Below are positions 4,124-64,000 of a stretch of DNA of 64,000 nucleotides, piece after piece. The notes below the pieces were generated by a model. The model did no database searches. It was not told the origin of the DNA and worked only from the letters and a program-made list of their open reading frames with translations. The stretch's first letter is position 1; the number at the start of each line of letters is the position of its first letter. Where the stretch lies: positions 44,877-108,876 of the IMG/VR virus record IMGVR_UViG_3300020048_000055. One strand, 5' to 3'. The position numbers and the translations under genes were made by a program. Source of the stretch: a virus.

Positions 4124-5080
4124 ATGCTATATTCAACAATACTAATCGATGTATTCAACCTTATTCACAAAAAAAAAGAAAAAGAAACTGATGCGAAGAA
4201 TATAGCTAACTCGGTTATTGACTTTATTGAGACAGTAATAAAGCCTAAACTAGAGAACACTGAATCCAAACTCTATTTACTTTTCGACCCGATGCCAGTA
4301 AGTGACTTAAATATTTCAAATCAATTTAGAACTTTCACTACTACGAGAAACACAATTAAGTCTACTTACAAAGCTAAAAGGGAAAAAGACCCAATAATTA
4401 TTGAAGTTGCAGATTTTCTCTTGAAATACTTTTCTTATAGAGACCCTGCCTATTATTTGGTAATATCTGAAAAACATGAAGCGGATGATTTTGTAGAGTC
4501 ACTTGTAAAAGATTCAGGTAAAACATTACTTATAAGCTCAGACTTTGATTGGGCGAGATATCTTTCCTCAGAAGTGAGCATGTCAACTGGTGATATAAAT
4601 CAACCATTTACTACCTCAGATTTTATTGAGAAGTTTGGGTACTTACCTTCCATTAAAAATGTTACGGTAAACAAAGCACTCTTCGGAGACCCCTCGGATA
4701 ATATTGATGGACTTTTTTCCAGTAAGTTTAAGTATAAAGAACTCGGTGAACAAGCTATGGCTTTTATCTCAAAAACAGATGAAAACTTAAATGATTTTGT
4801 TGGAAGGATTAAGGCATACACATTTAAGCAATTATTTGAGCTTAAAGTTAGAAATCCTGAGGAAGAGCTTTTCTATCAAATAAATTGTTTTGAAAAAAAG
4901 AACTTAACAACTCAATTTTTCTTAAACATTGCGTTAGTAAGAAGCTTATGTTCCGATGCTAATAAGTTTGTAAAACACTTTTCAAAAAGAGACAATGGTT
5001 TCTGTACTCTAATTGATAAGACCCTTTCTAGGGGAGAATCAAAAAAGAATACATTTAGGTTCGGAAAAGTAAAGATTTAA
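4124..5080 (+). CDS. 5'-3' exonuclease / flap endonuclease (T4 RNase H-like)
   Basis: LID..N, LFD, YKAKR, HEADD, SSDFDW, KALFGDPSDNI motifs. Confidence 0.85.
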   Translation: MLYSTILIDVFNLIHKKKEKETDAKNIANSVIDFIETVIKPKLENTESKLYLLFDPMPVSDLNISNQFRTFTTTRNTIKSTYKAKREKDPIIIEVADFLLKYFSYRDPAYYLVISEKHEADDFVESLVKDSGKTLLISSDFDWARYLSSEVSMSTGDINQPFTTSDFIEKFGYLPSIKNVTVNKALFGDPSDNIDGLFSSKFKYKELGEQAMAFISKTDENLNDFVGRIKAYTFKQLFELKVRNPEEELFYQINCFEKKNLTTQFFLNIALVRSLCSDANKFVKHFSKRDNGFCTLIDKTLSRGESKKNTFRFGKVKI

Positions 5081-5111
5081 TGGGATTTATGTTAATATAT
5101 TATTAACTACT

Positions 5112-5438
5112 ATGGAGGTTATTAAAATGAGTACAAAAATAAGTTCAGGTAAAGTCACTCTTATCAAACATTCGGAAGAAGATATAGTAAAGCTATGCCA
5201 AAGTTTATCTGGGGATATCCTTTCTTCAGTATTGAAAAAATATAAAGAGTCCAATAAAACCATAGATATGTATGGGATGTTATCCGACACCTATGCAGAT
5301 ATAATTGGATTGTGCTCAAAAATGATGAATGAAGATAATATCCTTTTTAATGAATCTTCCTTTTTTAGTGCATTATCCAGCAGGTTAGCCAGTAAGAAAA
5401 CCCCTGTAACAAGGAGTTTCCCTAAAGATGGCATCTAA
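5112..5438 (+). CDS. Hypothetical protein
   Basis: ORF in operon context. The start may be ATG at 5127 after GGAGG. Confidence 0.65.
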   Translation: MEVIKMSTKISSGKVTLIKHSEEDIVKLCQSLSGDILSSVLKKYKESNKTIDMYGMLSDTYADIIGLCSKMMNEDNILFNESSFFSALSSRLASKKTPVTRSFPKDGI

Positions 5439-6447
5439 TTTATATGTAATGAGTGATGTACAGTTTCAAGCCTTGAATGGTTGGAACTATGAAATAGGAA
5501 ATAAGTTTTTAGATTGGTTTGAGACTTTAGAAGTAAAGCCTAATTCTTACTTTATACAGCTTGGAGACATGACAGAAAAAGATACAAATCCTGGTGATGT
5601 TGTACGGCAACTGGAAAGATTCTTTTCAATCTGTGCAAAGAAGTTTGTGAAGTCATATATCCTTGTAGGAAATCATGATATGAAACTTTATCATGGTAAG
5701 GTACAAATCTCCTTTGCTTTTGCCGAAGAAAAAGATAAAATTGAAGTAGTACGAGACCTTTCAAACATTGAGATTGATGGAATGAATATTCTGGCAATGC
5801 CTCATGTAAGGGTTAGGGGAAAAACTCTCCATGAGTTTTATAATAAGAAAACCCCTGAGGAATACTTAAGCCTAATTAAAAATGGAAAAACCAAGTTTGA
5901 CCTCGCTGTAGGGCATTGGCAGAAGCAGGGAGCAGAAGGTTCCCCAGAATGGATTAGGGACGGAGTAAGCACTGATAATCTTCCAGTAAACAAGTTTATG
6001 TTGGGTCATATTCATAATAGACCGGATACTGATTATCTGGGTTCAGTATGGCCCCTTAAGGTTTCAGAAGAGTTTAGTGAGTTTGGTAGGGTAATTGGAT
6101 TAGTAACGAAGACTGACAAAATAGAATATTCTGAAATAGAAATTCCAAGGTTTTGTAAGTATGATACTATCACATATCCCGAGCCATTTGTAAAACCCTT
6201 AGATACTTTAGTTCATGTATATACTGTTGAAGGTTGTAAAAATATTGGTATAGCCCAAGAGTTTTATAAAGATGTGTATATTCGGTCTACAGGTAACAAT
6301 AAAAAAGAAGAGGAAGAAACAATATCCTCTGAGGAAGACTTCCTCTTTACGGATTACTTAGATGCCTTTAACAAGTACTGTGCAGAAAAGAAACCTAAGC
6401 TAAATAGAAATGTTTTAAAAATAATTACAAATCACTTGAAAATATAA
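5428..6447 (+). CDS. Mre11/SbcD/T4 gp47-like metallophosphoesterase recombination nuclease
   Basis: SD, LGD, GNHD, GHW, LGHIH, YLGS motifs. Confidence 0.85.
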   Translation: MASNLYVMSDVQFQALNGWNYEIGNKFLDWFETLEVKPNSYFIQLGDMTEKDTNPGDVVRQLERFFSICAKKFVKSYILVGNHDMKLYHGKVQISFAFAEEKDKIEVVRDLSNIEIDGMNILAMPHVRVRGKTLHEFYNKKTPEEYLSLIKNGKTKFDLAVGHWQKQGAEGSPEWIRDGVSTDNLPVNKFMLGHIHNRPDTDYLGSVWPLKVSEEFSEFGRVIGLVTKTDKIEYSEIEIPRFCKYDTITYPEPFVKPLDTLVHVYTVEGCKNIGIAQEFYKDVYIRSTGNNKKEEEETISSEEDFLFTDYLDAFNKYCAEKKPKLNRNVLKIITNHLKI

Positions 6448-6451
6448 TTGA

Positions 6452-7042
6452 ATGACTAATCTTATAACTGAGGTTAGTCATTTGAGTTATAATGAACAGA
6501 TAATAAATACGATGGTAAAAAAATCATTTGCACTTGATGGGGGATTTGGGTTTAAGATATCCGATCCTCCAAAGTCTGCGGCAATGAATGTTCAAAAGAA
6601 TCCATTTGATGGATTTGGTGTTATTAATACCACTCTTATAAAAGATGAAACTTATAAAAAGTTTACAAGCAACTTTATCCCCTTTTACTGGGAAGCAAAG
6701 TTTATGAAAGAGGTTTCTGCTTTCGCTCTTAAACGAATTGAAATACATCAAGCCTACTACTTAAATAACACCTTAAAACTTCCAGAAACTTTCTCTATAG
6801 TACCTCTTGGGATATACGCCAAGCGTGGAGAAGTTAGAATCTATCTGTTTGAATGGGAAGCTCTTTCTCAACTCTATGAGAATGGTTTTTCTATTCATAA
6901 GAAGTTTTTAGAAAAGTTACCTTTTAATAAAGTTGTATTAAAAGAAGGTTTATTCTCAATAGACCACATTATAACTAAAAAAACATTACTCGATTTATAC
7001 GGGTATGATATTTACATGGAGAAGAAAAATGCCACGGATTAA
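6452..7042 (+). CDS. RecU-like Holliday junction resolvase
   Basis: FKI.D, NPFDGFG, WEAK, IEIHQ..YL pattern of the RecU family. Confidence 0.65.
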   Translation: MTNLITEVSHLSYNEQIINTMVKKSFALDGGFGFKISDPPKSAAMNVQKNPFDGFGVINTTLIKDETYKKFTSNFIPFYWEAKFMKEVSAFALKRIEIHQAYYLNNTLKLPETFSIVPLGIYAKRGEVRIYLFEWEALSQLYENGFSIHKKFLEKLPFNKVVLKEGLFSIDHIITKKTLLDLYGYDIYMEKKNATD

Positions 7043-54831: not shown

Positions 54832-55815
54832 TTATTCCTTTATTTTTCGTGTCCTAGAACCTCTTCCAAGGGAATAACCTTTTTCTAAAAGTTTAATTGA
54901 GTCTTCCTTTGTAGCAAACCTTTGCTCCAACTCGTTATGCACCCAAACACGCCCTAACCTTGATTCAGTCATCTTCTTTTTTGCAGATTCAGAAGCCAAC
55001 AGTCTTCCCTCTTTCCACCCTTTTAATTTTAAAAAAGATTCCATTTCATCTGGGAAAACCCAGTGTTCCTCAATAGTATTTGTAACCCATAGTCTTCCAG
55101 TCCTATCAATTGACTGTTGGAGTTTTTGTTCCTCAGTTCTTACCTTTCCTAAGTTTTTCCCTATGCTGTTTTTTGACATAAGTTTCTTGGTTTCTTCTGT
55201 ATGATTTTTACCTTTAATCCAACTATTTTCCGACATAAGTTTTTTTGTCTTATCACTCATTCCTAATTGATAACCCTCAGAGAGGTAGTAATCAAGTTCC
55301 TCGGGCTTAATTAACCTCAGGTCATCACCTTTACTTACAAACACTCTACCAATATTCATTTTTGAAACTATATCCCATCCACCATCACCCCCAGTTTTTA
55401 AGTTGTACCCTATTTCTTTATTGTTACCATTTCTTACAGATATCCAGTATTTCTCTTTTTCATTTAATTCATTTTTCATATCCTCTTCTGTTTTAATATT
55501 ATCATACATAACTACATCCAAATAAAACTTATGAAAATGGATTTCACCATATTTATTAATAGCATTTTTATAATAGGGTCCACCTGAACCTAAATAAGAG
55601 TTAACTTGGGAGGGTCTTTTTGTTTTCCAACAGGTTTGTTTTCCAACATAATTCTTTAGATTAATATCACAAATAACTTCATATATGCATCCATAATATT
55701 TCAAGTTATCCCTATTTATAGCGGATTTCCCTGCCAAGTTTATACCGTCAAAATCTAAGAATTCTACGTTAGAACCAATCTTCTTATTGAACCTATTAAA
55801 AATATCTATATCCAT
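54832..55815 (-). CDS. GIY-YIG homing endonuclease (Seg-like) with NUMOD3 repeats
   Basis: GCIY.......KNYVGK, YLGSG, AI.KYG, E..WI, GYNL..GG.GG, KNHTEETKKLMS. Confidence 0.85.
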   Translation of the reverse strand: MDIDIFNRFNKKIGSNVEFLDFDGINLAGKSAINRDNLKYYGCIYEVICDINLKNYVGKQTCWKTKRPSQVNSYLGSGGPYYKNAINKYGEIHFHKFYLDVVMYDNIKTEEDMKNELNEKEKYWISVRNGNNKEIGYNLKTGGDGGWDIVSKMNIGRVFVSKGDDLRLIKPEELDYYLSEGYQLGMSDKTKKLMSENSWIKGKNHTEETKKLMSKNSIGKNLGKVRTEEQKLQQSIDRTGRLWVTNTIEEHWVFPDEMESFLKLKGWKEGRLLASESAKKKMTESRLGRVWVHNELEQRFATKEDSIKLLEKGYSLGRGSRTRKIKE

Positions 55816-55940: not shown

Positions 55941-58529
55941 ATGGGTAAGGGTTCGTCATTTCGTCTCATTTTTTTAGATATCGATAGTAGTTTTTCTATC
56001 AATGATGAAAGTGCAACGATAAAAGGTTATATGGTAGTACGTTCACCAAAAGGTACGGCTGAACCGATGTATTTTGGTCCCGGTAATGAGGGTGCGATTC
56101 ATTCAATGATTGGTATTCCTGATGCAAATCATCCTGATATTGCAGAGGCAATTGCATATAACAGCGAATATGGTATTTACATTTCAGCACCTGCGGGTTC
56201 AAGTGAAGATTATGCGTCTTACTATGGTGGAGCATATCTTACAACAAAAGGTTCCTTTGATTTCTACAAAGTTTCAGACAAGGAAGAATTAAACTTCTTG
56301 ACTGCAATAAAACTTGGAAGTGAAAAGAATAAGTTTATTACTCTTGCAACTGCACCTGTTACCACGTTAACAGATACCGCAGACCTTATGTTCCCAACTG
56401 TGGGTGAAGGTGTATTTGCTATCAATGGGGTAAGTAATGCCATCATGAGTAACTTAGATCATTTAGATTTTGATTATTGGGGAAACAATGAAACAACCTC
56501 AGCAGTTAGCAAAGGTGTAAAAGAACTTACCTTCTCCATAAGCGGAGCTAATTGTACTATCAATGATGGATTAGTTCAGATTGGTGCAGGTGTTACACAG
56601 CCCGATGGTACATGGAATCTTACTTTTGGAAAAATCCAAACTGAATTCAACACTGGAATTATCTGGCTTGATTTCCAAGACTATGGAAATTGGTACAAGT
56701 ATCTAGGAATTGATAAGATTGTAGGTGAAGCCGCTCAACAGGCAGTTATTCTTACAAACAAAACAAAGATTTTTGCTTACGTTTTTAGCGGAACTCAGTT
56801 CTCTAAAGATAATGGAGTTACATACACAGAGCCGGTAACAGGACTTAAAAACAGATTCAACTGGGTTGTAAATATCGAAGATATTTCTTTCTCTGCAATC
56901 AATCAAAAGTCACCTACTGAAAAAGAAACGAAAGTAACTATTTCTCACATTGGGTATGATAAGTTTTACTATGATAGTGCTCTTGCTTATCTTGGAACGG
57001 CAGATCAGACAAAAACTGTTTTCAATACTGGTGATGCAAATAACTATGTTATATTCCTCGATTCTACAAACCTTATTCCTAAAACCATTATGCAATATAA
57101 AGGTGCAAAAGCAGGTTTACCAGTATTCGTAGATGTAACTAACACAAAGTTTAAGTCAAAGTATATAAGAATAAGAAACTCTGCAACCGCAACGAGTGTA
57201 TCAACTCTTGATAATACCCTATGGTATGTTACAAGTGCAGGAGTATTTGTTCAAGCTACACCAGAAAGCAATAACCCTCCTAAGGTTAATCCTTTGTTTA
57301 ACTCGATTTCGTTTAGCTGTTCGGAAGAAGTATACCCGGGAACCGTAACAGGTGGTGGAACATTTACCGGTTCACTATCAGAAACAGGAAAAGATTCCTA
57401 TGGTTCACAGATTTATTTCCCAATGATTCTTCCAGACTCAGCTCTATCTTTTGTTGAAGTAAAAGTATTCCCCAATGTTCAACTTGATACAATGGCAGGA
57501 ATGATTAATGATTTTGGTTTCTGGACTGGTACCCGTATTGTCGATGACTTCGGACCAGAAGTAGATTCTTATATCGTACAGTTCTCTGGTAAGCGTTATG
57601 TTCAACATCTTATTGAACAAAATGTAGCTAATGGAATGGTTGGTTGCCCTAATGGTGATGAAACATTCTTTGATGTTTGTAACATGGGTTGGATGGAAGC
57701 TTTCAATCCTAAATATGATGAATGTTCTGTTTTCATGGAACCGACTGGTATTGAGACCTTGAAAGAAAAGCTTGCCGCTCTTAGAGCAACTCAGAAACTT
57801 TCAACCATGATTTCTTTCAAAGTAATCACTCAAGCAGATTTCTTAGATACTGACTCTATCGCAATTACTGCCCGTCTTACTGGTACTGCTCAATACGTTG
57901 GTGAGTTCTTGGTAAAAGACCCTTATACTGGTAAAAAATACTGGTGTATGCCGATAGGTGATGTTGGTGTAAACCTTTCACGTATCATGGAAAAGAAACT
58001 CGGTGGTTGGGCACCTATGTGGCAGAATATTTCTGGTGGACTTGGTGGACAACTTGGTCGTTCAGTTCTTAAACAAAAATGGAACTTCACTGACGAGGAT
58101 ACTCAAGTTCTTGATAAAAAAGGTCTTAACCCAATCTCGTTCAGTGCAGATGATGGCTTGATGATTCTTTCACAAAAGACTACTCAAGACCCAACAAATC
58201 TTACTGATTGGTCTTACCTTGGTCATACAATGTCTTTCGACCTTTTCAAGAGAGATATGCGTGATAATGTAATGAGACCTCAGATAGGTAAACCCATCAA
58301 TGATTATTGGATGAATATTAGACAACAAAATGCCGATGCTATCATGGCAAAACGTTTGTCTGGTTCACAACCAATCTGGAGTGCAGGTAAAATTGATATC
58401 GCTGGTGTCAATACCGATACGACAAAAGCTAAGAGAACGTTTATGATAAAAGCTACAGTTAAGGTTTCAACCTTTTCTGAAAAAATTTCTCTTACCTTCG
58501 AGAATGTCGCACAAACCACGAACCTTTAA
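55941..58529 (+). CDS. Tail sheath protein
   Basis: N-terminal DIDSS, C-terminal W.P.G...W.AP.W...G, L...GLNPI, SQKT, IGKPIND, F.I...VK. Late promoter, AAGGAG RBS, own terminator. Confidence 0.8.
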   Translation: MGKGSSFRLIFLDIDSSFSINDESATIKGYMVVRSPKGTAEPMYFGPGNEGAIHSMIGIPDANHPDIAEAIAYNSEYGIYISAPAGSSEDYASYYGGAYLTTKGSFDFYKVSDKEELNFLTAIKLGSEKNKFITLATAPVTTLTDTADLMFPTVGEGVFAINGVSNAIMSNLDHLDFDYWGNNETTSAVSKGVKELTFSISGANCTINDGLVQIGAGVTQPDGTWNLTFGKIQTEFNTGIIWLDFQDYGNWYKYLGIDKIVGEAAQQAVILTNKTKIFAYVFSGTQFSKDNGVTYTEPVTGLKNRFNWVVNIEDISFSAINQKSPTEKETKVTISHIGYDKFYYDSALAYLGTADQTKTVFNTGDANNYVIFLDSTNLIPKTIMQYKGAKAGLPVFVDVTNTKFKSKYIRIRNSATATSVSTLDNTLWYVTSAGVFVQATPESNNPPKVNPLFNSISFSCSEEVYPGTVTGGGTFTGSLSETGKDSYGSQIYFPMILPDSALSFVEVKVFPNVQLDTMAGMINDFGFWTGTRIVDDFGPEVDSYIVQFSGKRYVQHLIEQNVANGMVGCPNGDETFFDVCNMGWMEAFNPKYDECSVFMEPTGIETLKEKLAALRATQKLSTMISFKVITQADFLDTDSIAITARLTGTAQYVGEFLVKDPYTGKKYWCMPIGDVGVNLSRIMEKKLGGWAPMWQNISGGLGGQLGRSVLKQKWNFTDEDTQVLDKKGLNPISFSADDGLMILSQKTTQDPTNLTDWSYLGHTMSFDLFKRDMRDNVMRPQIGKPINDYWMNIRQQNADAIMAKRLSGSQPIWSAGKIDIAGVNTDTTKAKRTFMIKATVKVSTFSEKISLTFENVAQTTNL

Positions 58530-59377: not shown

Positions 59378-59458
59378 TTTAACCTCTGTAAAATATATTA
59401 ACTTTTATTAATAAAGTCACGCAATTATGTTAATATATCTATATTAAATGGAGGTTAT

Positions 59459-60217
59459 ATGAAATTATTAATTACGAGTGGTGGAACAAAGGTAAATATT
59501 GATACGGTTCGACACATAGGGAATATGTCTTCGGGAACGTTTGGAGCAAAGATTGCTTTAGAAGCATTGAAAGATGGGCATGAAGTAACTTTCTTAAAAG
59601 CATCTGGTTCTAAGAGTCCAATCTATCCTGATTTTAGTACGGAAAACTATATGACCTTAGATTACTTTGATGAGGTTAACAATGAATACCGCAAATATAT
59701 TAATCTGTTTAAGGACAAATGTAGGATTATTGAATACTCAGATTTTTATGAATATCAGGAAAGTGTTGATGACCTTCTTGAAGACCATACGTTTGATGTA
59801 ATTGTATTAGCAGCGGCAGTAAGTGATTATGGTGTTGAAAATCCTGTTGATGGAAAAATAAGATCTACCGAAGAAGAGATGACAATTAAGTTGAACAAAC
59901 TTCCTAAAATTATATCTACTGTTCGGGAGAAAGCTCCAAACTCAATAATTATTGGATTTAAGCTTTTAGTAAATAGTACTGACACCGAACTTATAAATAG
60001 TGCAAAAAAATCATTAATAGATAACAACCTTGATATGGTAGTTGCGAATGACCTGAGAGATATAAAGGATAATAATCATGTAATTCATCTTATTACAAAA
60101 TCTGGGTATGATAGTGCAGAAGCAGATGATGATTGTAAAGATCGTAACTACTTGGCAAACCATTTAGTGGCTTATTTCAAATATCTTTCAGATAGAAAAC
60201 TTGTGGAGAACAAATGA
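59459..60217 (+). CDS. coaB: Phosphopantothenate--cysteine ligase (CoaB / Dfp C-terminal domain)
   Basis: LITSGGT...ID.VR.IGN.SSG.FG, AAAVSDY, PKII, IGFKL, VVAND. Confidence 0.9.
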   Translation: MKLLITSGGTKVNIDTVRHIGNMSSGTFGAKIALEALKDGHEVTFLKASGSKSPIYPDFSTENYMTLDYFDEVNNEYRKYINLFKDKCRIIEYSDFYEYQESVDDLLEDHTFDVIVLAAAVSDYGVENPVDGKIRSTEEEMTIKLNKLPKIISTVREKAPNSIIIGFKLLVNSTDTELINSAKKSLIDNNLDMVVANDLRDIKDNNHVIHLITKSGYDSAEADDDCKDRNYLANHLVAYFKYLSDRKLVENK

Positions 60218-61323
60218 ACTTAAAACAGAAAATACTTTTAGGGGTTACAGGAACTGTAGCAACTAGTCTTACCAGAAAAATTGTAGAGGGTTTTATTGAA
60301 AAAGGTTTTGATGTAGGATTAGTGTTCACAGAGAAAGCAAAAAGCTTCATTGATTATTCTGATCTTATAGGTACTGGACACTCAGGGATTTTTGATGATT
60401 CAAATGAATGGCCCACTAATAATAATGGGGAACCTATGATATGGGAAAAAGGGAATCCGATAGCCCATATTGATTTGAGAGAAATGTATTCTGCTTATGT
60501 AGTAATTTGTTCTGCAAATACTTTAGCAAAAATAGCAAATGGTATCTGTGATAATTTGGTTACATCGATTGCTAGAGCATGGCCCACTTATAAACCTTTT
60601 ATTATTGCTCCTGCAATGAATACAACTATGTGGGAACATAGTACTACAGAAAAACATCTTAAAGAGTTTGAGTATTTTTCAAAAAATAATAAAATTGTTT
60701 TCCCTGCTGTTAAGAAACTTGCTTGTGGAACTATGGGTATAGGTGCTCTTGCCAATATTGAAAAAATTGTAAGTGTAACTGAATCCTCGCTTGTATGGAA
60801 GTTCCCAATTAGAAATTGCTATGGACTTCCCATTAATCCGCATCCGGGTGCTTTTGGTTTTTCAAGAAAAGATAGTAGACATACGGGTGTTGATATTTAT
60901 ACAGACCTTGATGAACCTGTCTATGCAGTAGAAGAAGGTACTATTGTAGGCATTGAACATTTCACAGGTGATTGGGATAACTCTCCTTGGTGGAATAATA
61001 CTGATTGCGTACTTATAAAGGGTGCCACTGGTGTAGTATTATATGGTGAGATATCAGTAGATGAATACTGGGTTAGGGGATCTAGAATTCAAGCAGGAGA
61101 ATATCTTGGTAAAGTTATGCGAGTAATTAAAGAGGGGAGAGACCATTATGAAATAACTGGTTGGAGACCAACTATGCTACATATGGAATTGTATCCACAT
61201 GACACTCTCTTTGCATCTCATGGGTTTGAGGAACATTTACTTAATGACCCTACACCTTTCTTACTTAAAAATAATGGATGGAATAATCCTAAAACAGTAA
61301 CTTATGATTCCTATAAGGCGTGA
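60214..61323 (+). CDS. coaC: Phosphopantothenoylcysteine decarboxylase (CoaC, HFCD flavoprotein) fused to an M23 peptidase-like domain
   Basis: ILLGVTG.VA, HI.L, SANTLAKIANGICDNL, PAMNT.MW, LACG..G.GAL; C-terminal RHTGVDIY, PVYAVEEG.I, LHMEL. Confidence 0.85.
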   Translation: MNLKQKILLGVTGTVATSLTRKIVEGFIEKGFDVGLVFTEKAKSFIDYSDLIGTGHSGIFDDSNEWPTNNNGEPMIWEKGNPIAHIDLREMYSAYVVICSANTLAKIANGICDNLVTSIARAWPTYKPFIIAPAMNTTMWEHSTTEKHLKEFEYFSKNNKIVFPAVKKLACGTMGIGALANIEKIVSVTESSLVWKFPIRNCYGLPINPHPGAFGFSRKDSRHTGVDIYTDLDEPVYAVEEGTIVGIEHFTGDWDNSPWWNNTDCVLIKGATGVVLYGEISVDEYWVRGSRIQAGEYLGKVMRVIKEGRDHYEITGWRPTMLHMELYPHDTLFASHGFEEHLLNDPTPFLLKNNGWNNPKTVTYDSYKA

Positions 61324-61330
61324 ATAAAAG

Positions 61331-61358
61331 AGGACATCCAATTGGATGTCCTTATTTT
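61331..61358. terminator. Terminator between convergent genes
   Basis: AGGACATCCA-AT-TGGATGTCCT. Confidence 0.8.
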
Positions 61359-62771: not shown

Positions 62772-64000
62772 ATGAGTGAATTACTGAATAAATTAAATTA
62801 CTTGACTGAAACGAAAAATCTGATGAAAGCAAAATTAGGTACAACCTCTGACATCTTGAGAGACTACGTTCCTCTCATGAAATATGATGACGGTTCCGCT
62901 CCAAAAGAATGGACAGAAGCTGAGTGGTTGGATGTATACAATAGTTATCAAAGACCTGCGGATTGGTTGACAATTCCTACAATTCTGGAATCTGAGGAAA
63001 AGGTTGTTGGTCTCTATCCAGTTTATGATCATGACTCAAACTTTGTTGCAGTTACAATCTCAGGAAATTATTCAGTAGACTGGGGTGATGGAGTTACCGA
63101 AAATTTCGTAGCTGGTGTGAAAGCTGAACATAAATATGATTATTCATCTTGTGGAAATTTTTCAACCTTAGGTTATAAACAAGTTTTAATTACAATTACC
63201 CCTCAAGCAACTTTTAATTTGACTTCTGTAGTATTAAATGTTTTCCATACCTCAGTACCAAATAAATCCAATTCCTTTTTAGATATTTCAGGAAACGTTG
63301 AATTCATTTCAAACTTTAATGTACAAAGCTTAAATATATTAGAGACTTTTAGTTTAGGACTAAATAATATTGTAAGTTTTTCTCAGATGTTTAATGGTTG
63401 TACTTCCTTAAAAACGGTTCCGCTTATTGATACAAGTTCAGGTACAACCTTTTCTAATATGTTTCAGAATTGTAAGTCATTACAAACGATTCCACTTATT
63501 AATACAAGTAAATGTACAAACTTTTCTCAGATGTTTCTGGGTTGTTCTACCTTAAAAACGATTCCATTTATTGATACAAGTTTAGGTACAAACTTTTATT
63601 CTATGTTTGCTAATTGTAATTTATTAAAAACGATTCCACTTCTCAATACAAGTTCAGGTACAAACTTTTCTAATATGTTTATTGGTTGTACTGCATTACA
63701 AACGGTTCCACTTCTTGATACAAACTTAGGTACAGATTTTTCTCAGATGTTTTATGGTTGTACTGCATTACAAACAATTCCGCTTCTTGATACAAGTAAA
63801 GGTACAAGCTTTTCTCAGATGTTTAATATGTGTAAGTCATTACAAACGATTCCACTTATTGATACAAGTTTAGGTACAAACTTTTATGCTATGTTTAATA
63901 CTTGTACTGCCTTACAAAAGATTCCACTTATTGATACAAGTAAATGTACAAACTTTGCTTATATGTTTAATACTTGTACTACATTACAAACGATTCCACT
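62772..64000 (+). CDS. Variable LRR (BspA/DUF285-like) protein, copy 3; runs off the window end
   Basis: ATG 62772 MSELLNKLNYLTETK..., frame open to 64000, at least 9 MFxxC units of 72 bp. Confidence 0.9.
   Translation, partial: MSELLNKLNYLTETKNLMKAKLGTTSDILRDYVPLMKYDDGSAPKEWTEAEWLDVYNSYQRPADWLTIPTILESEEKVVGLYPVYDHDSNFVAVTISGNYSVDWGDGVTENFVAGVKAEHKYDYSSCGNFSTLGYKQVLITITPQATFNLTSVVLNVFHTSVPNKSNSFLDISGNVEFISNFNVQSLNILETFSLGLNNIVSFSQMFNGCTSLKTVPLIDTSSGTTFSNMFQNCKSLQTIPLINTSKCTNFSQMFLGCSTLKTIPFIDTSLGTNFYSMFANCNLLKTIPLLNTSSGTNFSNMFIGCTALQTVPLLDTNLGTDFSQMFYGCTALQTIPLLDTSKGTSFSQMFNMCKSLQTIPLIDTSLGTNFYAMFNTCTALQKIPLIDTSKCTNFAYMFNTCTTLQTIP

Follow-up and report, generated by a model that had tools for sequence, protein, structure and literature searches.

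Phosphopantothenate-cysteine ligase (CoaB, or PPCS) and phosphopantothenoylcysteine decarboxylase (CoaC, or PPCDC) are two enzymes of coenzyme A (CoA) synthesis. The closest described systems are the stand-alone (type III) CoaB of Streptococcus pneumoniae (PDB 2gk4; TIGR02114), the Hal3-type decarboxylases represented by AtHAL3a (1e20, 1mvl, 1mvn) and human PPCDC (1qzu), and the bifunctional CoaBC (Dfp) of bacteria, together with canonical M23 domains such as those of Zoocin A (5kvp), StM23 (9gy1), lysostaphin (4lxc) and LytM (2b0p). The locus described here lies in a 64,000-nucleotide stretch of viral DNA (the window), which spans bases 44877-108876 of the 108,876-base IMG/VR record IMGVR_UViG_3300020048_000055. 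CheckV estimated the record to be only about 37% complete, and a jumbo phage is therefore implied. The locus consists of two open reading frames (ORFs), for which the same two activities as in CoaBC are predicted. Whereas bacterial CoaBC is bifunctional, the two halves are here encoded separately, with CoaB ahead of CoaC, and the CoaC gene continues in frame into an M23-like domain with an altered active site as an extra fused partner. We found this fusion to be conserved across giant phages, and on Rosetta-stone and neighbourhood evidence its CoaC and M23-like parts and the adjoining CoaB are predicted to be functionally linked. The features of the locus, in window coordinates, are as follows.

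59459..60217, plus strand: ORF1, predicted CoaB-type phosphopantothenate-cysteine ligase, stand-alone, with a DFP domain, 252 aa (Pfam DFP, coaB_strep, PDB 2gk4)
60214..61323, plus strand: ORF2 as a whole, predicted CoaC-M23-like fusion, 369 aa (Pfam and motifs)
60214..60789, plus strand: ORF2 residues 1-192, predicted Hal3/PPCDC-type CoaC flavoprotein domain (Pfam, 1qzu, AtHAL3a, Foldseek)
60790..61323, plus strand: ORF2 residues 193-369 plus the stop codon, predicted M23-fold domain (sub-threshold Pfam score, VIA-align, residue mapping)
59450..59454, plus strand: Shine-Dalgarno sequence GGAGG, 4 nt 5' of the ORF1 start codon (read from the sequence)
61330..61353, no strand assigned: terminator-like hairpin with a 10-pair stem and T-runs on both strands, 7 nt past the ORF2 stop codon (terminator scan)

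The start codon of ORF2 and the stop codon of ORF1 share the sequence ATGA, and a GGAG is located 5-8 nt upstream of the ORF2 start. ORF1 and ORF2 are thus predicted to form a compact, translationally coupled two-gene operon, closed by the hairpin at 61330-61353. An earlier inspection of the letters of the window and its translated ORFs (the sequence-only reading) had described a stand-alone CoaB overlapped through ATGA by a CoaC, and the ORF coordinates and the overlap were exactly as claimed. It had also reported that no internal in-frame ATG with a ribosome binding site was present at the junction. A check of the sequence agreed with this, as ATG, GTG and TTG are all absent in frame between ORF2 residues 174 and 302, and the M23-like part would therefore be made only within the fusion.

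ORF1 matched Pfam DFP (PF04127) with an E-value of 4.6e-37, and its residues 1-224 gave a full-length alignment with S. pneumoniae CoaB 2gk4 (E 2.9e-24). The motifs SGGT (residue 7), SSG (24), AAAVSDY (118), GKIRS (132) and VAND (195) were identified in ORF1, and are held in common with the S. pneumoniae enzyme as SGGT...SSG, AAVSDY, GKIxS and VAND. Unlike that family, ORF1 scored only 128.3 bits against TIGR02114 coaB_strep over residues 1-225, where the equivalog cut-off is 217.2, and a score of 138.8 bits was obtained against NF005231, for which the cut-off is 265.

The N-terminal half of ORF2 matched Pfam Flavoprotein (PF02441) over residues 6-187 with an E-value of 2.2e-26. The closest solved relatives of residues 1-192 were human PPCDC 1qzu (E 1.2e-31) and AtHAL3a (E 6e-28), while bacterial CoaBC 6tgv matched this half with an E-value of only 1.4e-7. 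The three catalytic motifs that had been read as intact from the sequence (the His of HIDL, PAMN..MW and the Cys of LACG) are present as H85 (AHIDL), N136 (PAMNTTMW) and C171 (LACG), and align with the same residues in AtHAL3a and human PPCDC, that is with the His of xxLHIxLR, the Asn of PAMNTxMW and the Cys of the ACG clamp. The residue changed in the C175S structure 1mvl corresponds to C171, and H85, N136 and C171 are invariant in an alignment of 27 homologues. An AlphaFold model was obtained with a predicted local distance difference test score (pLDDT) of 91.5 and a predicted template modelling score (pTM) of 0.88. Comparison of this model with AtHAL3a 1mvn using Foldseek gave a TMt of 0.89 and a root mean square deviation of 2.2 Å, and the Hal3-type decarboxylases share with it the FMN-binding fold at TMt 0.84-0.89 and 33-37% identity. 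ORF2 differs from AtHAL3a and human PPCDC in its additional C-terminal M23 fold of approximately 175 aa, and in being phage-encoded beside a separate CoaB. Against the NCBIfam models, the CoaC half scored 101.1 bits for TIGR02113 coaC_strep (cut-off 261.4) and 99.7 bits for TIGR00521 coaBC (cut-off 219.7). The auxiliary CoA-pathway pair suggested by the sequence-only reading is backed by the motifs, by the fold (TM 0.89 to AtHAL3a) and by the full-length similarity to 2gk4, and ORF1 and the CoaC half of ORF2 are very probably real enzymes of the PPCS and PPCDC type.

The C-terminal half of ORF2 is more divergent from its described relatives. Residues 222-305 scored 24.9 bits against Peptidase_M23 (PF01551), which is under the gathering cut-off of 28.7, and some relatives of the domain score above it (for example 38.5 bits for L035 and 43.9 bits for P0204). 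A model of the domain alone had a pLDDT of 91.3. Using VIA-align, Z scores of 12-14 to many M23 chains were obtained over approximately 120-155 residues, including LysTt72 and Csd3, with values of 14.2 for the LytM domain of EnvC, 14.1 for StM23, 13.6 for LECT2 and 13.5 for lysostaphin; Foldseek also matched M23 folds. The canonical M23 enzymes (Z 10.5-14.1) have the same fold and share with the ORF2 domain the HxxxD motif, the final His of HxH and the FGxR segment. By alignment, the zinc-ligand positions are kept as H223 and D227 (HTGVD) and H323 (MLH). HMMER aligned the Y-G-E containing E279 with Y-A-H of Zoocin A, and hhalign aligned the M-L-H-M-E containing M321 with H-L-H-W-E of a canonical phage tail-lysin M23 from a related carrier. 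This mapping bears out the motifs that had been described from the sequence, namely HTGVD kept, YGEI in place of YxHL, and MLH in place of HxH. Both catalytic-His positions are therefore replaced, with E279 for the His of YxHL and M321 for the first His of HxH. Among 27 fusion homologues H223, D227, Y277, G278, E279, M321, L322, H323 and E325 are invariant, and the pattern of H, D, E and M-L-H is invariant across 29 fused and stand-alone members in every context.

Unlike canonical M23 enzymes, in which these positions are His, the ORF2 subfamily invariably has the Glu and the Met. Its members also differ from canonical M23 enzymes in lacking a wall-binding domain and in having cytoplasmic metabolic partners and, for ORF2, a sub-gathering Pfam score; no signal peptide was found on the M23-like protein. 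Structural similarity to LECT2 (5b0h), EnvC LytM (4bh5), DipM and SpoIIQ is comparable (Z 11.6-14.2), and by sequence LECT2 has the segment GxFxxxRxxxxHxGVD in common with the ORF2 domain. These four are extracytoplasmic or secreted interaction modules, whereas the ORF2 subfamily keeps the metal-ligand positions and an invariant Glu. EnvC, DipM and SpoIIQ have presumably lost their metal ligands, and LECT2 keeps zinc without any known peptidase activity. Four complete carrier genomes encode no M23-type domain other than that of the fusion. The M23-like domain is probably not a cell-wall enzyme, because it is without a signal peptide, it is the sole M23 domain in those four carriers, and its homologue in phage PA5oct, gp441, was not detected in virions, the 'murein hydrolase' label of that protein being purely bioinformatic (PMC7318152). 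The fifth carrier genome, G022, keeps a canonical M23 domain in a tail lysin. This gene (L069:274-2844, minus strand) encodes an 856-aa tail/baseplate lysin with canonical HMGID, FFHL and HLHWE motifs, and the genome thus holds both a canonical and a re-tooled M23 domain.

At least 120 full-length relatives of the fusion were found in a large protein database, with lengths of 336-404 aa, 45-66% identity and 91-100% coverage, and most of them carry both Pfam domains. A scan of viral contigs with the single protein gave no result; when IMG/VR was scanned with a profile, 15 full fusion loci were recovered on contigs of up to 527 kb, all with intact ORFs. The same fusion, at 31.6% identity, is encoded by the 735-kb phage LR756501. 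One of the two explanations offered by the sequence-only reading, an accidental fusion, is refuted by the 120 or more conserved relatives and by the invariance of the junction and of the M23-like residues. No stop is present at the junction, and the homologues are mostly fused rather than always split. The search for the Flavoprotein+Peptidase_M23 architecture and its neighbourhoods, which that reading had proposed, returned a conserved family with CoaB adjoining.

In 14 of the 15 viral fusion loci, a CoaB gene on the same strand precedes the fusion by 0-2.8 kb. LR756501 has the opposite order, with CoaC-M23 followed by CoaB through an ATGA overlap (217.5-219.2 kb). Other genomes carry the three parts as separate genes: at L021 the M23-like gene (4646..5197) overlaps CoaB (5194..5862) through ATGA and CoaC follows (6040..6606), L040 has the same layout in a locus that ends at the contig edge, and in G014 three separate genes lie inside 5.5 kb. 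The fusions themselves also vary. P0177 is an M23-CoaC fusion, P0236 (565 aa) an M23-CoaC-CoaB fusion, and L056 encodes a 667-aa CoaC-CoaB-M23 protein, while the L051 locus has a bifunctional CoaBC gene and, paired divergently with it, a stand-alone M23-like gene, so that true CoaC-CoaB fusions occur in these relatives of the locus. In a FastTree phylogeny of the M23-like domain, CoA-linked members were found in both main halves. Many forks of this tree are unsupported, and only changes forced by supported branches were counted; by this count the CoaC-fusion label must have changed at least five times. The predicted functional link is drawn because the parts stay together in many arrangements and because the label changes at least five times. 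No other conserved neighbours were found around the fusion loci or the stand-alone M23-like loci. CoaB-like ligases also occur outside the module, as LR756500 has a CoaB-like gene without CoaC and without the M23-like domain.

The remaining genes of the CoA pathway were searched for in 18 carrier records. The sequence-only reading had suggested a search for coaA, coaD and coaE elsewhere in the genome, and in the 108.9-kb record of the window, which is only about 37% complete, no CoaE, CTP_transf_like (CoaD-type) or type III pantothenate kinase (PanK) gene was found; elsewhere, CoaE was present in two of the 18 carriers (LR756501 and G021). Type III PanK and phosphopantetheinyl transferase (PPTase) were found in none of the 18 (type I and type II PanK were not searched), and five carriers at 95-100% completeness had no detectable CoaE or type III PanK. 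Small CTP_transf_like genes, possibly CoaD, are present in some carriers. In LR756501.1 (603765-604714, W04), CoaE adjoins a 163-aa CTP_transf_like (CoaD-like) gene, and judged by its gene content LR756501 may cover all but one of the five CoA steps. Acyl carrier protein (ACP) and PPTase were considered as users of phage 4'-phosphopantetheine and rejected, since ACP was found in one of the 18 carriers and PPTase in none.

The M23-like subfamily extends beyond the CoA module. A domain profile search gave 2377 representative clusters at E<=1e-3, and 520 remained at the stricter limit of E<=1e-30. When 185,579 species genomes were scanned, the domain was present in 21 loci only; all of these are contigs of metagenome-assembled genomes (MAGs) and none belongs to an isolate genome, and the subfamily therefore looks phage-restricted, having been seen only in phage records and MAG contigs. 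Partners were tallied for the 150 best representatives. Among these, 44 are stand-alone, 42 are joined to CoaC, nine to an uncharacterised domain of approximately 170 aa and four to another, at least two (P0207 and P0243) are joined to NUDIX, and there are many singleton partners. The ~170-aa domain, which is the second commonest partner, lies N-terminal to the M23-like domain in alignment A3 (P0160, P0164, P0165, P0169, P0179, P0208, P0212, P0252 and P0266; also L039:9518-10486), with the consensus LVGGVF..SGY..NGG..WMADxPN..QSKNN..ASGAELL. No relatives of it were found in Pfam or the PDB, where only noise was returned (e.g. myoglobin). At L035:8342-10504, on a 409-kb contig that is 96% complete, a 720-aa protein combines adenosine 5'-phosphosulfate (APS) kinase, PUA_2, ATP-sulfurylase and M23-like domains; this 3'-phosphoadenosine 5'-phosphosulfate (PAPS) synthase is a second sulfur-metabolism enzyme to bear the M23-like domain.

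Several observations concern CoaB-like DFP domains that are joined to other partners in huge phages. At L062:367-2622 and L064:3844-5922, both on the minus strand, DFP + Aldolase_II + NUDIX proteins are encoded head to head with a stand-alone M23-like gene, and a GNAT match was obtained in L062. At L042:1552-2718 (LR745208), L043:1138-2400 (minus strand) and L044:1489-2772, DFP is fused to a class II aldolase-like domain, and these genes adjoin S-adenosylmethionine (SAM) methyltransferases (L042 and L043) or a glutathionylspermidine-synthase-like gene (L044). From their gene context, the DFP-aldolase genes look like parts of a small-molecule pathway built on CoaB-type ligase chemistry.

The reading that we prefer combines an active CoaB and CoaC with an M23-like zinc module that is coupled to them in function and is not directed at the cell wall, and as a composite we consider its chances to be about even. 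CoaB and CoaC would convert host 4'-phosphopantothenate and cysteine to 4'-phosphopantetheine, using CTP or ATP, and the host would supply the CoA steps before and after. The M23-like domain would be a cytoplasmic zinc module coupled to this chemistry, either in catalysis or in binding, and would most likely be a small-molecule amidohydrolase, or a thiol- or amide-binding site, for a pantetheine-type or related thiol amide; in this way it would feed or recycle substrate for CoaB and CoaC. The narrower claim that the domain acts directly on a CoA-pathway metabolite is tentative, and we hold it to be rather unlikely.

A number of points weigh against this reading. Both CoaB and CoaC fall far under the NCBIfam equivalog cut-offs; they therefore represent a divergent lineage, and the models do not guarantee functional equivalence. 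Kept zinc ligands do not prove catalysis, as LECT2 illustrates. Most of the complete or near-complete jumbo phages with a stand-alone M23-like copy have neither a DFP nor a Flavoprotein domain (PA5oct, XacN1, G007, G009, G010 and G013); their copies show the same active-site residues, and the core function of the domain therefore cannot depend on a phage CoaB or CoaC. With the fusions to PAPS synthase at L035 and to several uncharacterised partners, the function of the M23-like domain may not be specific to the CoA pathway. The co-occurrence rates are biased, as the locus scans used motif patterns from the same family, and some of the 'stand-alone' database proteins may be fragments. The other explanation offered by the sequence-only reading, a ligase/decarboxylase/amidase trio, gains strong genetic support from the linkage of its parts, which occur together in about eight arrangements. 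Its chemistry would be that of a putative pantetheine or cysteamine amidase, and the case is complicated by the fusions to PAPS synthase, NUDIX and uncharacterised partners and by the stand-alone copies.

The most probable of the alternatives, though still unlikely, is that the M23-like domain serves for docking or oligomerisation, as a zinc-stabilised module without catalytic activity that localises, assembles or regulates CoaC, CoaBC, PAPS synthase and NUDIX proteins, with CoaB and CoaC simply raising the host supply of 4'-phosphopantetheine and CoA. The promiscuous architectures would fit such a module, since the domain is found at either terminus, with many unrelated partners, and by itself in 44 of the 150 best representatives. 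The two catalytic histidines of canonical M23 enzymes are missing, and EnvC, LECT2, DipM and SpoIIQ, which are among the structurally nearest solved chains, are taken by us to be non-catalytic; the high pTM (0.88) would also suggest rigid packing on CoaC in the model. However, degenerate LytM domains usually lose their metal ligands too, whereas in this subfamily the H, D and H of the ligand positions do not vary over hundreds of clusters at less than 50% identity, nor do Glu279, Met321, R218 and Y277, and such a pattern looks like an active site. A pure adaptor is also not expected as a separate small gene translationally coupled to coaB, as is seen at L021.

A specific catalytic scheme, a closed cycle or else a route of CoA-thiol salvage, is quite unlikely. 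It holds that the M23-like domain cuts the beta-alanyl-cysteamine amide of 4'-phosphopantetheine, with zinc and Glu279 as general base, releasing cysteamine or a damaged thiol moiety and regenerating 4'-phosphopantothenate. The net reaction would be cysteine to cysteamine and CO2 with one nucleoside triphosphate (NTP) spent, and 4'-phosphopantothenate would be only a carrier, amounting to a 'cysteine decarboxylase by proxy' or, equally, to a means of exchanging a damaged CoA thiol. This would account for carriers that have CoaB and CoaC but no PanK, CoaE or PPTase, and for the preference of the M23-like domain for the decarboxylase as its fusion partner, as in consecutive steps. NUDIX partners would fit as CoA pyrophosphatases feeding 4'-phosphopantetheine into the cycle, and stand-alone copies could act on host pools. 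By analogy with the oligoglycine cleaved by M23 enzymes, the pantetheine arm is an amide chain without branches, and the zinc-ligand set with the Glu and the invariant R218 presumably resembles that of small-substrate LAS-type dipeptidases such as VanX. The scheme is nevertheless purely inferential, there is no obvious phage use for cysteamine, and we know of no M23-fold pantetheinase. The PAPS synthase fusion and the uncharacterised partners do not fit it, and in LR756501 the presence of CoaD and CoaE points to CoA as the end product.

It is improbable that CoaB and CoaC act on some other carboxylate/cysteine conjugate, such as an EpiD/MrsD-like peptide Cys or a precursor of DNA or nucleotide modification, with the M23-like domain processing the product. 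The scores far below the equivalog cut-offs are consistent with this, as are the matches of EpiD, MrsD and TvaF, which are HFCD relatives, to the CoaC fold, and the fusions of DFP to Aldolase_II, GNAT and NUDIX beside methyltransferases in other huge phages point clearly to a re-use of CoaB-type ligases in other chemistry. Yet the CoaC half is much nearer to the PPC decarboxylases (E 1e-31 to 1e-26) than to EpiD and MrsD (1e-10 to 1e-5), and it has retained PAMNxxMW and the clamp Cys, neither of which is known from the peptide decarboxylases. ORF1 can be aligned with S. pneumoniae CoaB over its whole length, and no precursor peptide or modification genes are conserved nearby.

Very improbable is a genuine peptidoglycan endopeptidase, acting as an endolysin or lysis helper, for which the metabolic enzymes would be mere carriers or moonlighting partners. 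The fold does match peptidoglycan hydrolases with Z scores of 13-14, including the phage lysin LysTt72, and weak matches to PHROG endolysin and peptidase families were obtained; endolysins are often without a signal peptide, and PA5oct gp441 has been annotated as a murein hydrolase by bioinformatics. Against this, Glu and Met invariably stand in for the two second-shell catalytic His residues, fusions to cytoplasmic oligomeric enzymes are found in either order, none of the loci shows linkage to a holin or lysis gene, and G022 keeps a separate canonical M23 domain (HxxxD, FFHL, HLH) in its tail lysin, where wall cutting is needed. Finally, the metagenomic origin of the contig might suggest an artefact of assembly or sequencing, or else a recent read-through that arose by accident, but this can practically be dismissed given at least 120 independent full-length homologues from many samples and the intact ORFs of the 15 viral loci.

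Literature searches on phage CoaBC, phage PPC decarboxylase, CoA biosynthesis in huge phages and the Flavoprotein+M23 architecture returned no description of such a system in the papers that were searchable. Phages do not usually carry genes of the CoA pathway. As enzymes, the CoaB and CoaC encoded here are of an ordinary type, and the interest lies in the re-tooled M23 domain and its linkage to them. Taken together, the PAPS synthase, NUDIX and DFP-Aldolase_II(-GNAT)-NUDIX associations, the triple fusions, the carriers without CoaB and CoaC and the lack of the domain in isolate genomes widen the subject beyond an accessory of CoA synthesis, towards a family of cytoplasmic M23-like domains associated with phages. 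Should the domain prove catalytic, small-molecule metabolism would be added to the range of a fold that has been regarded as devoted to peptidoglycan and Gly-Gly bonds, and it would show how giant phages manipulate host thiol and CoA pools. Were the closed cycle true, these would be the first M23-fold enzymes acting on cytoplasmic small molecules and a new zinc/Glu type of amidase. An adaptor, on the other hand, would provide jumbo phages with a general means of organising their auxiliary enzymes. The 'peptidase M23' and 'murein hydrolase' labels given to these genes by annotation pipelines, as for PA5oct gp441, are probably wrong.

Few of the window neighbours of ORF1 and ORF2 were given a name by PHROGs, and no tRNAs were found in the 64-kb window. 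An 862-aa protein with a weak match to a tail-sheath PHROG is encoded at 55941-58529, adjoining a homing-endonuclease-like gene at 54832-55815 on the minus strand. A tblastn search with the sheath-like protein gave no match among 50,697 deposited phage records, and the phage lineage of the window appears to be poorly sampled. Downstream of the operon, an ORF of at least 409 aa (62772-63998) runs past the end of the window and contains many repeats of approximately 21 aa of the BspA/LRR_5 type (..FxxCxxLxxIPLIDTSxxTNFxxMF..).

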